The notes: generated by a model from the sequence alone, not told the origin. 59,172 nucleotides of DNA from Patescibacteria group bacterium (GCA_018609195.1 JAHCSE010000006.1:1-59172), one strand, 5' to 3'. Counted from the first letter of the stretch, positions 24,805 through 58,620 are shown. A program made the numbers and translations.

Positions 24805-24884
24805 CCCCGTAGTGAAAATTGGACTGCCGTCGGCTCTTTTTGTATTTTGCTTCGCAAAATACATGTCCAATTTCTTCTACGGGG
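24805..24884. mobile_element. CCCCGTAG-type hairpin element (MITE-like), 80 bp, flanked by CAAG/CAAG
   Basis: Arms CCCCGTAGTGAAAATTGGAC and GTCCAATTTCTTCTACGGGG, inner hairpin gtattttgc-ttc-gcaaaatac, and a 4-bp direct repeat at 24801-24804 and 24885-24888. Confidence 0.65.
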
Positions 24885-46516: not shown

Positions 46517-46951
46517 TTATTTTTTACTTTCCGAAAATTGGTGAGCTTTTATTAAAATATCTTTTGCGTTTTGAAATGTTAATTGCCTCAAGGCTTCTTC
46601 ATAAGGCAGCCATTTATAGTCAATATGTTCAAAGGAAATTTTCACATCTTTTGTTTTAGCTCTTGCTAAATAAAAGGTAACTGTTTTGAAAATGGTTTTT
46701 CCTTTAAATTTAAAAAAATATTTAATATGTTCTTTAAACCCCTCAATAATTTCAATGTCTTCTAATCCGGTTTCTTCTGCCACCTCTCTTTTTACCGTAT
46801 CGATTTCTTTCTCTCCTTTTTCAATGTGACCTTTGGGTAAATCCCAATACTCCTTGGTAGCTTTTGCTCCTGGTGGATAATGCAATAATAAGTATTCTAT
46901 CTTTTGGTTATCATAAAAGATAAGAGCACCAGCTGATTTTTCTAAAGGCAT
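46517..46951 (-). CDS. NUDIX hydrolase
   Basis: Canonical NUDIX box GHIEKGEKEIDTVKREVAEETGL. Confidence 0.88.
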   Translation of the reverse strand: MPLEKSAGALIFYDNQKIEYLLLHYPPGAKATKEYWDLPKGHIEKGEKEIDTVKREVAEETGLEDIEIIEGFKEHIKYFFKFKGKTIFKTVTFYLARAKTKDVKISFEHIDYKWLPYEEALRQLTFQNAKDILIKAHQFSESKK

Positions 46952-46952
46952 A

Positions 46953-47261
46953 CCCCGTAGGAAATAAAGTATTTTCCGTTATTATATTGAACGACCTTTG
47001 AAATAATGTTTTAACCTGTCTTTAATAAATCTTTTCCCAATTCCAGTTTTAAGATATTTTTCCCTTTGTTTGGCATCTTCTTTATGCAAACAAACTTCAA
47101 GATAAATTAATCTAAGCGGTCTTCTTGATTTGGTAGAAAATACTTTACCTAAATTATGTTTTAAGATTCTTTTTCGAAGGTCTTCAGCAAAACCTGTATA
47201 CAATTTACCGTCTTTTAGGCTCTGGAGAATATATACGTAAAACATAATATTTTCTACGGGG
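46953..47261 (-). mobile_element. GIY-YIG cassette bounded by CCCCGTAG-type inverted repeats and flanked by CATA/CATA
   Basis: Left end CCCCGTAGGAAATA (46953-66) and right end TATTTTCTACGGGG (47248-61); arms match at about 20 of 26 positions. 4-bp direct repeat at 46949-52 and 47262-65. Lies between two otherwise abutting genes. Confidence 0.6.
46982..47245 (-). CDS. GIY-YIG nuclease-domain protein (YhbQ/UPF0213-like, 87 aa)
   Basis: MFYVYILQSLKDGKLYTGFAEDLRKRILKHN and REKYLK. Confidence 0.85.
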   Translation of the reverse strand: MFYVYILQSLKDGKLYTGFAEDLRKRILKHNLGKVFSTKSRRPLRLIYLEVCLHKEDAKQREKYLKTGIGKRFIKDRLKHYFKGRSI

Positions 47262-55295: not shown

Positions 55296-57152
55296 TTATG
55301 GTGCAGTAGCCACAATGGTTACGGTCGAGTTATGCTGAGCTGAAGAAGAAGTTTCAGTAGGCATGGTTATGCGTAAATATAAATTTTGAGTAGTCCCTTG
55401 AACAACATTATCTGCCAAATCAGAAAGAGTACCAGGAGTTAAAAAAGTATTCCAGACGCTGGCATCTGCTGAAAACTCCCATTTGACCTGATTTGCCCCG
55501 TTGGCTAAACCTAAAGACCAGCAATTTCCATTATCGCAAAAAACTGTGCTTTTAACGTCCAAGTTGGCAGGTCCTGTGTCTATGCTAACGGTCTCCACCC
55601 CAGAGAGAGTAGTGTCTTCAGTACTTCCTAAGGGTAAAATTCCAAATTCAACTAAGCCATTGGTGGTTAAACTAATGGAAACTGCCGGAACAAGACTTGA
55701 AAGAGCAGCCTGAGCATCAATTATTCCAAATCCAAACTCATCATCTCTCCCACCGGCCCCTTTATCCTCAGCAGTTGACTCAAGAACATTTCTTACTTGA
55801 GACGGAGATAAGTTACCATCAACTGACAAAATCAGTGCCGCCAGCCCAGCAACATGGGGCGAGGCCATCGAGGTACCCTGAAAAAAGAAAAAAGCAAAGT
55901 CTGAAGTATTAGCTCCAAAAGTTTGCTGTAAAACGCCGTCTCCAAATCCATCCTCATTTTGATCAACAGTTACATCACCACCTGGAGCAGCTATATCAAT
56001 GTATAAACCTGTATTGGAGTAGGGCGCACGATTTTCGTCATAGCGGGTTGCAGCTACCGCAATCACATGAGCATCATAGGCCGCTGGGAAATTAGGCAGG
56101 TTTTCACCCTCAAAATCATTACCTCCAGAAGCGACAATTGTGACACCACTATTGAAAGCCGTCTCCACTGCGTCTCTCATTACTTGTGCATCAAAAGTAG
56201 TGCCTAAACTCATATTGATAACATCGGCACCGTTGTTGGCTGCAAGTAAAATGCCCTCTGCAACAACACCGAGAAGCCCGCTGCCGTTGGCGTCTAGAAC
56301 CTTGATCGGCATAATAGTGGTATTAAAAGCAACACCTGCTACTCCTAAACTATTATTAGTACTTTGGGCAACAGTACCTGTAACATGAGTACCGTGACTT
56401 TCATCATCATTGGGATGATCATCACTGTTGACCAAGTCAGACCCCGGCAGTATGGAAAAAGTAGTATTGGCAAGATCCGGAGCCTGAAAATATTCATCAA
56501 TTCTTGGTCCTGGACATTTCTTCAAATTCCCAAATGGGAAACTGTAACAGCCTGCAGGGTTTGGATCGGAAAAATTCTCATAAGCCGCACCAGTATCTAA
56601 TACAGCGACCACAACGGAAACAATGCCGGTAGAAATATCCCAAGCCTCTTCCATCCTGATTCCGCCTCCGTTTGCTCCCCCAAAAGGATTGGAAGTCGCC
56701 TCACCAGGATTGTTTGTGTGGTCGTCATCAAAATGCCATTGGAAGTTATAAAACTCGTCGTTTGGGACAAAATGGGCTTGAATAAAAAAGTTTGGATGTG
56801 CATATTCAACCAAAGGATTTTTGGCAAATATCTCGGCTTTCTTATAGACATTTGAACCTTCCGGAAGGCTCAAAGTGACAAAACCGCCAAATCTGCTGGC
56901 ACGAATCTCAACCGCCCCTTGTTCTGCCTTTAACTGTTCAATCACAGATGGAGGTACATTGGGTTTAAATTTCACGATAATCTGGTCTGCCGCAAAAGCT
57001 GGCAAATCTGGTTTTGGGGTTGGCTGTCTGACTCTAAGAGATAAATCATTTTGAGCAAATCCCTGAAAAATTTGGATAGGCAAAACAAAACCGAAAATTC
57101 CACTGATAACTAAAGCCAAAATTAAAACTTTAGAAATTTTGACCATAAACAT
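55296..57152 (-). CDS. Secreted S8 (subtilisin-like) serine protease with I9-like propeptide and a C-terminal beta domain
   Basis: Catalytic triad VAVLDTGA, HGTHVTGT and GTSMASPHVAG. Propeptide IIVKFKPNV. The probable start ATG 57152 overlaps the hicA stop (TAATG). The listed start is 57167. Confidence 0.9.
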   Translation of the reverse strand: MFMVKISKVLILALVISGIFGFVLPIQIFQGFAQNDLSLRVRQPTPKPDLPAFAADQIIVKFKPNVPPSVIEQLKAEQGAVEIRASRFGGFVTLSLPEGSNVYKKAEIFAKNPLVEYAHPNFFIQAHFVPNDEFYNFQWHFDDDHTNNPGEATSNPFGGANGGGIRMEEAWDISTGIVSVVVAVLDTGAAYENFSDPNPAGCYSFPFGNLKKCPGPRIDEYFQAPDLANTTFSILPGSDLVNSDDHPNDDESHGTHVTGTVAQSTNNSLGVAGVAFNTTIMPIKVLDANGSGLLGVVAEGILLAANNGADVINMSLGTTFDAQVMRDAVETAFNSGVTIVASGGNDFEGENLPNFPAAYDAHVIAVAATRYDENRAPYSNTGLYIDIAAPGGDVTVDQNEDGFGDGVLQQTFGANTSDFAFFFFQGTSMASPHVAGLAALILSVDGNLSPSQVRNVLESTAEDKGAGGRDDEFGFGIIDAQAALSSLVPAVSISLTTNGLVEFGILPLGSTEDTTLSGVETVSIDTGPANLDVKSTVFCDNGNCWSLGLANGANQVKWEFSADASVWNTFLTPGTLSDLADNVVQGTTQNLYLRITMPTETSSSAQHNSTVTIVATAP

Positions 57153-57370
57153 TACAAAATTTCCCAAAATTTCTGTTTAGATATCTTTAAATCTTTTAAG
57201 ATTTGATTAAAGAGGGCGGGGCCAATTTCTTTCCCTTTATGGATAGGTACTGTAATTCTTCTTCCATCTGGGTGCCGCAGAATCAGATGAGAACCTTTTT
57301 GACGAGAAAAATAAAAGCCCAAATTTTGAGCTACTTTAGTAACTTCTTTAGCTTTCGGTAATTTGGGCAT
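57152..57370 (-). CDS. hicA: HicA-family mRNA interferase toxin
   Basis: 72 aa, GSHLILRHPDGRRITVPIHKGKEIGPALFNQILKDL. Confidence 0.85.
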   Translation of the reverse strand: MPKLPKAKEVTKVAQNLGFYFSRQKGSHLILRHPDGRRITVPIHKGKEIGPALFNQILKDLKISKQKFWEIL

Positions 57371-57373
57371 AAA

Positions 57374-57625
57374 TTAAACCTTAACCTTTACCTCAATCGA
57401 AGAAAGACTGATGGGCTTCAAAACTGGGATTTTCTCTTTATGCAAAATTCTATCCTCAATATGAAGTGTAATGACCTCCCGAATATTTCTTAAAGCTTCT
57501 TCTAAACTTCTACCTTGAGTGTAACAACCTGGTAAAGCAGGAACCGAAGCAAAAAAATATCCTTTTTCATCTTTTTCAATAATTGCTGGAAATTGATAAA
57601 TTTTTGTAATTTTTTTCTTTTTCAT
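57374..57625 (-). CDS. hicB: HicB-family antitoxin (UPF0150 domain)
   Basis: YQFPAIIEKDEKGYFFASVPALPGCYTQGRSLEEALRNIREVI. Confidence 0.85.
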   Translation of the reverse strand: MKKKKITKIYQFPAIIEKDEKGYFFASVPALPGCYTQGRSLEEALRNIREVITLHIEDRILHKEKIPVLKPISLSSIEVKVKV

Positions 57626-57633
57626 ACAATTTT

Positions 57634-57661
57634 ATCTTATCTTTTTGAATAAAAATGTCAA
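57634..57661 (-). promoter_or_regulatory. hicBA promoter placing the transcription start at or next to the hicB ATG
   Basis: TTGACA, 16-nt spacer, TAAGAT, with only 8 nt between the -10 element and the ATG and no SD. The palindrome AGCAAAATTTTGCT lies upstream. Confidence 0.5.
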
Positions 57662-57720
57662 CTTTTTATATTCCGCCAATAACGAAAATCAATAGCAAAA
57701 TTTTGCTGATTTTAAGCATA

Positions 57721-57861
57721 CCCCGTAGAAGAATTTTGACCAATTACAATTAATTTGCTGCCCCGCCCCGTAGTAGAATTTTATCTGGAGCGAAGCTCTT
57801 TTACCCATAATGATGAAATTTCACTACGGGGCCCCGCAGCAGTCAAAATTTCTCTACGGGG
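57721..57861. mobile_element. CCCCGTAG-type hairpin element (outer copy, flanked by CATA/CATA) carrying a nested second copy
   Basis: Outer arms CCCCGTAGAAGAATTTTGAC and GTCAAAATTTCTCTACGGGG. Direct repeat at 57717-20 and 57862-65. Confidence 0.65.
57766..57831. mobile_element. Nested inner CCCCGTAG-type element, 66 bp, flanked by CCCCG/CCCCG
   Basis: Arms CCCCGTAGTAGAATTTTATC and GATGAAATTTCACTACGGGG. 5-bp direct repeat at 57761-65 and 57832-36. Confidence 0.6.
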
Positions 57862-57899
57862 CATAACAAAATTTCTTTACTACCAAAAATTCCGCGTTT

Positions 57900-57938
57900 G
57901 CCTCGCAGGAAAGCAAAACCTTCCTGCGAGGCTTTTTT
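57900..57938 (+). terminator. Strong hairpin with T-run oriented for the plus strand, with no plus-strand gene upstream
   Basis: 12-bp stem GCCTCGCAGGAA/TTCCTGCGAGGC followed by TTTTTT. It is followed at 57952-57991 by two smaller hairpins, ccgcc-aga-ggcgg and atcagcc-ttg-ggctgat. Confidence 0.5.
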
Positions 57939-57998
57939 GCGATTGCAGTTTCCGCCAGAGGCGGATCAGCCTTGGGCTGATAAGAATTCTTGAGGTGA

Positions 57999-58496
57999 TT
58001 ACAACGTTGCCTGAACAACCACATTAACTGACTGCTGAGTAAAGTCAGTGGCTGAAGGCGGAGTAGTAATCTTCAAATCAAAGGCCTGTGAGTTACCTGC
58101 GAGCACTCCGCTGGCAAGGACCTGGTTATCGAGAGTCAGCGCCGTACCCAATGTGAAAAAAGCATCCTTGCTGAATTCGTGCTTGTAATTGGTAGCACCA
58201 CTCGCCGTACCTGCCAATGTCCAACTACCCGGGGAAGAGGTTGTACCCCTGATATTGAGGGTCTCGGTTACATTCCCATCATTGGTCGCTGTCTGAGCGT
58301 CAACAGGGCTAAGAGTGTCTTTACTACTCCCCGCAGCTATTGTCCCATATTCAACCGTTCCATCAATTACAGAAACTGAAATATTTTGTACAGTAACTGT
58401 TGCACCAACGGTTGCTGTATCTGCTGCCTGCGTTCCTGCTCCTACTGCTAAACCAGCCAATCCTAAAACTAAAATTGAAGATATTAAACTTTTCAT
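57999..58496 (-). CDS. Secreted beta-rich protein homologous to the C-terminal domain of the S8 protease
   Basis: Signal peptide MKSLISSILVLGLAGLAVGAG. Blocks shared with the protease tail: G.VE.G, SWTL vs CWSL, EFSKDA vs EFSADA, and L.IT.P...V.V.A. Confidence 0.65.
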   Translation of the reverse strand: MKSLISSILVLGLAGLAVGAGTQAADTATVGATVTVQNISVSVIDGTVEYGTIAAGSSKDTLSPVDAQTATNDGNVTETLNIRGTTSSPGSWTLAGTASGATNYKHEFSKDAFFTLGTALTLDNQVLASGVLAGNSQAFDLKITTPPSATDFTQQSVNVVVQATL

Positions 58497-58543: not shown

Positions 58544-58620
58544 CCCCGTAGTAGAAATTCGACAAGTGTTTTATTTTGTAAAACACTTATGCTGAAAGCA
58601 GTCGAATTTTCACTACGGGG
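58544..58620. mobile_element. CCCCGTAG-type hairpin element, 77 bp
   Basis: Arms CCCCGTAGTAGAAATTCGAC and GTCGAATTTTCACTACGGGG, inner palindrome AAGTGTTTTA-tttt-GTAAAACACTT, and TTT on both flanks. Confidence 0.65.

Follow-up and report, generated by a model that had tools for sequence, protein, structure and literature searches.

Several described bacterial MITEs, among them the Correia elements of Neisseria, RUP, Nezha and Chunjie, are 70-150 bp long, have terminal inverted repeats, duplicate their targets and lie near promoters or gene starts; the elements considered here differ from them in their ends and in the length of the duplication, which for Correia is TA. In plants, nested MITEs are classical, with Tourist and Stowaway nests occurring in maize and rice, and Jiang and Wessler are said to have described such nests in 2001. 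These plant nests resemble the locus that we describe in that small gene-less elements with terminal inverted repeats carry duplications of their own, and nesting is evidence both for successive insertion and for a target preference. They differ from it in several respects: our host is bacterial and its genome tiny; co-variation between the arms makes the whole element a hairpin; the duplication is 4 bp long, with minor classes of 3, 5 and 6 bp; a DDE transposase partner was looked for in about 0.9 Mb of loci and not found; and the inner subfamily was found nowhere but in a single hairpin loop of a single host subfamily.

Among insertion sequences, those that target REP hairpins are complete and carry a transposase gene of their own. 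IS1397 and ISKpn1 enter the loops of palindromic units, and ISPpu9 likewise targets REP hairpins (Tobes and Pareja 2006, PMC1525189; PMC12288879); they share with our nest the combination of a mobile element and a small palindromic host repeat that is its preferred or only target, whereas in our nest intruder and host are gene-less hairpins of one and the same family, the intruder measuring 66-72 bp. The REP/REPIN-RAYT and IS200/IS605 systems rely on HUH tyrosine (Y1) transposases, and their insertion leaves no target duplication (PMC3116915, PMC3333891). Points of likeness are the co-varying hairpin arms, the single small gene flanked by repeats, movement that is thought to proceed via folded single-stranded DNA, and subterminal small hairpins that serve as protein recognition sites; in contrast to these systems, duplications are the rule in our family, and a GIY-YIG gene is the sole gene found within such ends.

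In the Ssn system, single-domain GIY-YIG proteins bind hairpin repeats that flank their own genes and cut single-stranded DNA alongside (Chenal et al. 2025, PMC11893778). Its authors remark that the repeat-gene-repeat layout resembles an insertion sequence, find the repeats scattered through genomes as well, and describe a role in limiting transformation; target duplications, empty sites and nests are not reported in that work, Ssn stands without a demonstrated link to transposition, and the main text makes no mention of Patescibacteria or Parcubacteria (PMC11893778). A cassette in our sequence has a comparable layout, with an 87-aa single-domain GIY-YIG protein (Ssn proteins have about 90-100 aa) encoded between CCCCGTAG/CTACGGGG hairpin repeats. 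The published SRM pattern of Ssn repeats, HGTCWYN(0-2)YYVSBRHN(0-5)WNVSBRGN(0-2)RNCYNB, however, matches none of 137 family copies and nothing within 57700-57880; we therefore rejected the identification of the family with the published SRM repeats. What appears unusual about the present locus is that both partners are gene-less members of one family, that the intruder was found only in one loop of one host subfamily, and that a GIY-YIG gene stands in place of a known transposase. We know of no report of a subfamily confined to another element's loop. Nested MITEs and insertion sequences that target REP loops are already known, and what is added to them here is a site-specific nest together with evidence that it has formed repeatedly.

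The locus lies in the window, by which we mean the whole stretch of DNA analysed, 59,172 nucleotides from a Patescibacteria group bacterium (GCA_018609195.1). We interpret positions 57717-57865 as the insertion of one non-coding hairpin MITE into another, the outer element having been 70 bp long beforehand (Table 1). An earlier note on this DNA had described an outer element with 20-nt arms between CATA tetranucleotides and, inside it, a 66-bp element with an arm pair of its own between CCCCG pentanucleotides; on direct reading, every coordinate and every letter that it gave for this stretch proved correct, and a repeat finder reports both pairs of 20-nt arms.

Table 1. Positions of the nested element, its parts and neighbouring features, counted from the first letter of the window.
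Feature	Position	Strand	Remarks
Further family copy, 80 bp	24805-24884		CAAG duplication
309-bp cassette	46953-47261	-	Ends CCCCGTAG/CTACGGGG, CATA duplication; 87-aa GIY-YIG nuclease, PF01541 E = 2.8e-15
hicB promoter-like site	57661-57634	-	TTGACA, 16 nt, TAAGAT; about 60 bp from the element
Relic 17-codon ORF	57666-57719	-	MLKISKILLLIFVIGGI, then stop; original 5' end of the S8 protease gene; ATG in the outer duplication
CATA, left 4-bp target duplication of the outer element	57717-57720		TATG on the minus strand, holding the ATG of the relic ORF
Outer element, whole	57721-57861		141 bp; CATA on either flank
Outer left arm	57721-57740	+	CCCCGTAGAAGAATTTTGAC; pairs with 57842-57861
Outer A+T-rich spacer	57741-57756	+	Most variable portion among outer copies
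GCTG, 5' half of the outer small hairpin stem	57757-57760	+	Outer-type copies keep GCTG-CCNNG-CAGC adjoining the GTCRAA arm
CCCCG, left 5-bp duplication from the inner insertion	57761-57765		Former hairpin loop; un-nested relatives have a single CCCCG
Inner element	57766-57831	+	66 bp; arms CCCCGTAGTAGAATTTTATC / GATGAAATTTCACTACGGGG; mini-hairpin GGAGC-GAA-GCTC
CCCCG, right copy of the 5-bp duplication	57832-57836		
CAGCA, 3' stem half of the small hairpin and one further base	57837-57841	+	
Outer right arm	57842-57861	+	GTCAAAATTTCTCTACGGGG
CATA, right copy of the outer target duplication	57862-57865		
Further family copy, 77 bp	58544-58620		TTT flanks; small hairpin GCTG-AAA-GCAG beside the right arm, un-nested

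Together with the CCCCG that precedes it, the CAGCA of the small hairpin reads CCCCGCAG, which nearly repeats the terminus of the element, CCCCGTAG (repeat family D1); related copies of the CATA class have CCCCGTAGGGG at the position of CCCCGCAG. The window holds 11 copies of the terminus where 0.45 would be expected, and 0 of 100 shuffles had as many as 11. As DNA, the 149-nt stretch folds at -39 kcal/mol, compared with -12.6 +/- 2.8 for shuffles (z = -9.55). Bases of the inner arms co-vary with pairing kept at window positions 57778-57785 / 57812-57819 and in L122 and L038; the triplet pair GAC/GTC, for instance, is ATC/GAT in the window and L126 and AAC/GTT in L122. Because these triplets co-vary in a way that keeps the pairing, the comparison suggests that the hairpin itself, beyond the end sequence alone, is maintained in the inner arms. 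Between the 165-aa gene and the nested element lie three further G+C-rich hairpins (57890-57991), for the strongest of which a T-run is present only on the plus strand; in contigs of X1, X2 and X4 the depth is raised at 57946-57990, such that CCGCC-AGA-GGCGG and its surroundings are themselves a repeat.

The family to which both elements belong is widespread in this group of bacteria. A two-arm pattern scan of a species-representative genome collection gave at least 117 loci; among the 80 matches listed, all are Patescibacteria MAGs or unclassified, with the labels Parcubacteria/Paceibacterota, Nealsonbacteria, Portnoybacteria, Wolfebacteria, Yanofskybacteria and 'Saccharibacteria'. Exact 4-bp duplications flank 84 of the 134 copies with readable flanks, against a mean of 7.1 and a maximum of 18 in 2000 shuffled pairings, and exact 5-bp duplications flank 12 of the 134 (mean 0.82, maximum 5 in 2000 shuffled pairings); 3-bp and 6-bp duplications are rare. 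Since the flank duplications far exceed those of the shuffles, they argue firmly that this hairpin family moves or has moved, and the excess at 5 bp marks a duplication such as CCCCG as a genuine minor class. Terminal inverted repeats, target duplications of characteristic length and empty sites, of the kind by which MITEs are recognised, were all found, the empty sites in L069 and in runs X19, X21 and X22 for the inner element and in L136 for the outer one. The earlier note had held that the family is mobile now or was so recently; the mobility of the family stands on these duplications, whereas recent activity at this locus does not, as an allele lacking the inner copy was found in none of the assemblies and contig sets examined, X1 and X2 included, and the presence/absence polymorphism for which the earlier note had advised a check was likewise not seen there.

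The targets of the family fall into recurrent motifs: (C)TTGACA gives TTGA, TCAA, CAAG or CTTG duplications and GCATAWT gives CATA or TATG duplications, with TCAA/TTGA counted 25 times, CATA 16, CAAG/CTTG 14 and TAAA/TTTA 10. At asymmetric targets, insertion is orientation-specific. The largest target class, (C)TTGACA, is identical to the promoter -35 hexamer (at eight loci noted individually and at many more). These common duplications rule out CCCCG as a general target of the family, a preference that the earlier note had raised; at the present locus CCCCG was duplicated only as the loop of the host's small hairpin. General targeting of hairpin loops was rejected as well, the stems at reconstructed empty sites being no longer than those of shuffled pairings, and since ordinary targets have no excess of stems, loop targeting is special to the nests. 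The ATG within the CATA/TATG duplication opens an ORF of 48 to >500 codons in 18 of 20 copies, which indicates that the CATA class inserts on start codons. Start-codon copies were noted at twelve loci of our collection and at 46949-46952 in the window.

The outer element at our locus is one such case. On the minus strand, its duplication TATG is followed by CTTAAAATCAGC..., which translates to MLKISKILLLIFVIGGI and a stop. In frame, this relic can be aligned with the 5' end that the S8 protease gene now has (...MVKISKVLILALVISGI...), and better still with the start of the ORF that follows a 165-aa gene in the related contig L136 (VLKISKTLILVLVIGGM...); because of these two alignments, we place the outer element on the start codon that the S8 protease gene originally had. 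By the same comparison, a related species has the empty site: L136 reads ...AAATTTCTTTGTG joined directly to CTTAAAATCAGCAAAAC... (also given as AAATTTCTTTGTG joined to CTTAAAATC) and has no insert, and the minus strand of the window has at the same site ...AAATTTTGTTATG, then the 141 bp, then TATGCTTAAAATCAGCAAAAT.... In L135, L137 and L138 the protease gene directly follows the 165-aa gene, with neither hicBA nor a family element present. Downstream of the element in the window lie hicBA and a second, more diverged copy of the protease 5' end.

Within 57100-57719 on the minus strand, hicBA is situated between the relic (57719-57666) and the working copy of the S8 protease 5' end, and the relic is nearer to the L136 ortholog than that working copy is. 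It looks, from this arrangement, as if hicBA, on splitting the gene, brought along a 5' end to replace the old one. The earlier note had set the pair of elements upstream of the hicBA promoter region, and the hicB promoter-like site does lie about 60 bp from the element.

The evidence that the inner element is a true insertion comes from outer-type copies that lack it, for which the earlier note had recommended a search. The closest, a 70-bp copy with CATA flanks at 3384-3453 of L069, matches the outer element of the window at 65 of 70 positions, and the sole gap in the alignment is 71 bp long; because 71 bp is the combined length of the 66-bp inner element and one CCCCG, the inner element is a real insertion. 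A single uninterrupted GCTGCCCCGCAGC stands beside the GTCGAA arm in L020 and L058, and L008 has a variant loop; further un-nested outer-type copies are present in contigs of run X4. Un-nested hosts of the CCCGG and CCAGG variants exist in samples that also hold nested ones. One un-nested host, seen in several contigs, reads ...GCTGCCAGGCAGC... (also given as ...GCTGCCAGGCAGCAGTCGAA...), and contigs of runs X19, X21 and X22 have an exact skip of 76 bp, that is, an inner element of 72 bp plus 4, with 5 ambiguous letters at the joint. Since the un-nested copies carry a single GCTG-CCCCG-CAGC, the pre-insertion site can be reconstructed with one CCCCG as the loop of a 4-bp GCTG/CAGC stem, a loop that the insertion duplicated.

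This nest is not an isolated one. A metagenome scan with a pattern specific to the inner subfamily, independent of its surroundings, returned 10 loci, and in every one of the 10 the inner copy lies inside an outer-type element, with position and relative orientation unchanged from locus to locus; the same is true of all 4 loci in genome records (nests were seen in L038, L076 and L077). After orthologous and duplicate records had been merged, at least 10 distinct loci with differing flanking DNA remained, and no stand-alone copy of the inner subfamily was found among the 10 metagenome matches and the 4 genome-record loci. The inner copies occupy the loop of the GCTG-CCNNG-CAGC hairpin of one outer subfamily, and their flanks follow the host: hosts with CCCCG ends have inner flanks CCCCG/CCCCG (the window, L126 and, with one mismatch, L122), hosts with CCCGG ends have CCCG/CCCG (L038, the same locus as L121 and L125; L123; L118), and hosts with CCAGG ends have CCAG/CCAG (L076, the same locus as L119; L077; L120, the same locus as L124; L127). 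The inner terminus is CCCCG in nearly all nests across these three host variants. The nest can accordingly be read as successive insertions, as had been claimed for it, but not as a chance double event, being recurrent and specific in both site and orientation.

In all three variants the loop 5-mer equals the terminal 5-mer of the host itself (CCCCG, CCCGG or CCAGG), as seen in the window at 57761-57765 against 57721-57725, in L038, L077 and L118-L127 and in runs X8 and X19; L038 and L058, which belong to one MAG, conform to it even though their variants differ. This coupling of loop and terminus could reflect pairing with the right end or a single protein that recognises both sites. As a general interior feature of the family, the 5-mer of an element's own terminus was rejected, occurring in only 9 of 128 CCCCG-type copies.

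Other nests have a comparable geometry. In L042 an unrelated inner element with CCCTG ends is nested in an outer element with a 5-bp duplication, CTGCG, and in L098 two paralogous outer elements about 750 bp apart each hold an unrelated inner element in a CGGC-TTT-GCCG hairpin, one of the two with a 6-bp duplication, CTTTGC; in L042 and L098, too, the insertion lies in a small G+C-rich hairpin directly adjoining the GTCRAA part of one arm. The exception is one insertion in L076/L119 that is located in an arm. That locus (about 4517-4620 in L076, the same as L119) is a triple nest, with a third family element in the right arm flanked by a TTTT duplication. Scans of viral contigs gave only chance matches for the un-nested hairpin, in high-G+C DNA without family ends, and no match for the nested junction.

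How so uniform a set of nests came about can be explained in two ways, and the sequences make it likely that they arose through repeated site-specific insertion and not through the copying of one composite. The alternative is that nesting took place on one or a few occasions in the distant past and that a 141-bp composite of three hairpins has since spread by means of its outer ends, reaching the start codon at our locus already nested. It agrees with the constant position and orientation of the nest, with the inner subfamily not being seen alone, and with the occurrence of composite copies in other contexts in run X4; the inner core is, moreover, single-copy in contigs of the window's own samples, X1 and X2, where no donor is visible, and rare variants can go unseen in contigs. 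Two different loci, L121 and L123, each flanked by a separate CATA duplication, agree almost completely in both parts, and because these are near-identical composites, some spread as a unit probably also occurs.

Against the composite as the general explanation stand the un-nested hosts of all three types and the behaviour of the two short inner flanks, which match each other and change with the type of host end: a fresh duplication of the loop predicts flank pairs that are identical and follow the host variant, whereas relic duplications should have drifted apart. Inner copies are, in addition, far more similar than the spacers of their hosts, even inside one genome. Between the window and L126, 65 of 66 inner positions agree, compared with 13 of 20 in the host spacer (Fisher p = 1e-4); between L076 and L077, two contigs of one MAG, the figures are 67 of 70 and 9 of 20 (p = 1e-6). 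The left part of the window's outer element is nearer to an un-nested copy, L069 (36 of 40), than to L126 (32 of 40), which hosts the most similar inner element. Since un-nested forms of all three variants exist and inner copies are more alike than their hosts, we favour repeated insertion and regard the spread of a single composite as unlikely, though it retains real weight. The lower divergence of the inner copies could in part reflect stronger constraint and not a younger age. For the nest at 57721-57861 itself, either the inner element entered in place or the outer element arrived already carrying it.

Far less probable, to the point that we give it hardly any credence, is that no insertion took place and that the stretch is one structured repeat of three hairpins, its CCCCG repeats having arisen by slippage or local duplication of the terminal CCCCG. 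CCCCG does adjoin CCCCGTAG, such that a tandem CCCCGCCCCG is present, and the entire stretch folds into one very stable structure; however, un-nested copies differ from it by precisely the inner element and one flank copy, and sister nests have CCCG or CCAG flanks beside an unchanged CCCCG terminus, a constancy that rules out slippage of the inner terminus as the source of the flanks. No Rfam family matched, the best score being 22.5 bits against a threshold of 245 bits; the only hits were microRNA-precursor matches far below threshold, as expected of any long hairpin. Both outcomes that the earlier note had named as fatal to a nested insertion, an inner element conserved in every outer-type copy and flanks explained by slippage, were thus looked for, and neither was found. 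A misjoining of repeat copies by an assembler has a negligible chance of being the explanation because, even though Logan contigs of run X2 end within the right arm at 57836-57865 in the manner typical of repeats, four assemblies or sets of contigs, independent of one another, have the identical 141-bp nested sequence (the window, the ENA assembly, the JGI assembly and Logan contigs), 57300-58300 is spanned with zero differences by a 38,987-bp contig of X1, and the same architecture is found in many unrelated assemblies.

To ask what might move these elements, we turn to the genes found between family ends. The GIY-YIG cassette of the window has the same ends and the same CATA flanks as the outer element, as the earlier note had observed of the tetranucleotide, and sits on the ATG of a 144-aa gene. 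A second cassette, in L045, is 305 bp long, has the same ends and also encodes a GIY-YIG nuclease, with CAT visible before the sequence ends. These two are the only gene-bearing family members found, and a search for a larger autonomous partner (200-4000 bp, same ends and a duplication) returned only the 309-bp cassette and one chance pairing. Because the only genes found between family ends encode it, the GIY-YIG nuclease of about 87 aa borne by the 305-309-bp cassettes is our candidate for the mobilising enzyme. The best solved relatives of the 87-aa protein are the UPF0213 proteins 1zg2 (E = 2e-07) and 1ywl. Other small GIY-YIG genes were seen in L125 (1017-1262), L097 (181-414), L106 (301-498) and L056 (4431-4622), 39-59% identical to that of the window; they are adjoined by other inverted-repeat families or apparent tRNA-like sequences and have no CCCCGTAG ends.

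The sequences show an outer subfamily that lands on start codons, duplicating TATG (CATA on the plus strand), and that carries beside its right arm a small hairpin, GCTG-CCCCG-CAGC, whose loop and next bases imitate the terminus (CCCCGCAG against CCCCGTAG). The subfamily of the 66-bp inner element is a specialised one, which enters that loop in one orientation and duplicates it (5 bp here, 4 bp in the sister variants). For the enzymatic steps we propose the following. The GIY-YIG nuclease would act in trans, recognising the terminal stem as well as its imitation in the small hairpin, and would cut both strands of the palindromic stem where they meet the loop, the cuts being staggered by 4-5 nt across the loop. 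Host repair would then fill in the duplication; host ligation and repair must be assumed for the joining, since a hydrolytic nuclease alone does not explain how strands are joined. Put in its strongest form, a tentative proposal that we would not expect to hold in full, the inner subfamily would be an obligate parasite of a parasite, its sole target a terminus-imitating hairpin that would itself be the recognition and cut site of an Ssn-like GIY-YIG nuclease. If this is true, each nest would record the natural cut sites of the enzyme, at both loop edges and 4-5 nt apart, the nests would be the first direct evidence of Ssn-type hairpin repeats as transposons, and the stand-alone GIY-YIG domain of about 87 aa would serve a DNA transposon of about 300 bp as its endonuclease.

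Nested copies with separate duplications, taken together with un-nested and empty sites, are about the strongest proof of a family's movement that sequence alone can give, and here the proof concerns a Patescibacteria-wide hairpin family whose only associated gene encodes a tiny GIY-YIG nuclease. The constancy of the nest in site and orientation implicates one defined DNA structure, in which a 4-bp stem bears a 5-nt loop imitating the end of the element. The host element inserts at start codons, which stay intact, and its own occupation by a second element is a layered parasitism among mobile elements, found here in bacteria whose genomes are among the smallest.
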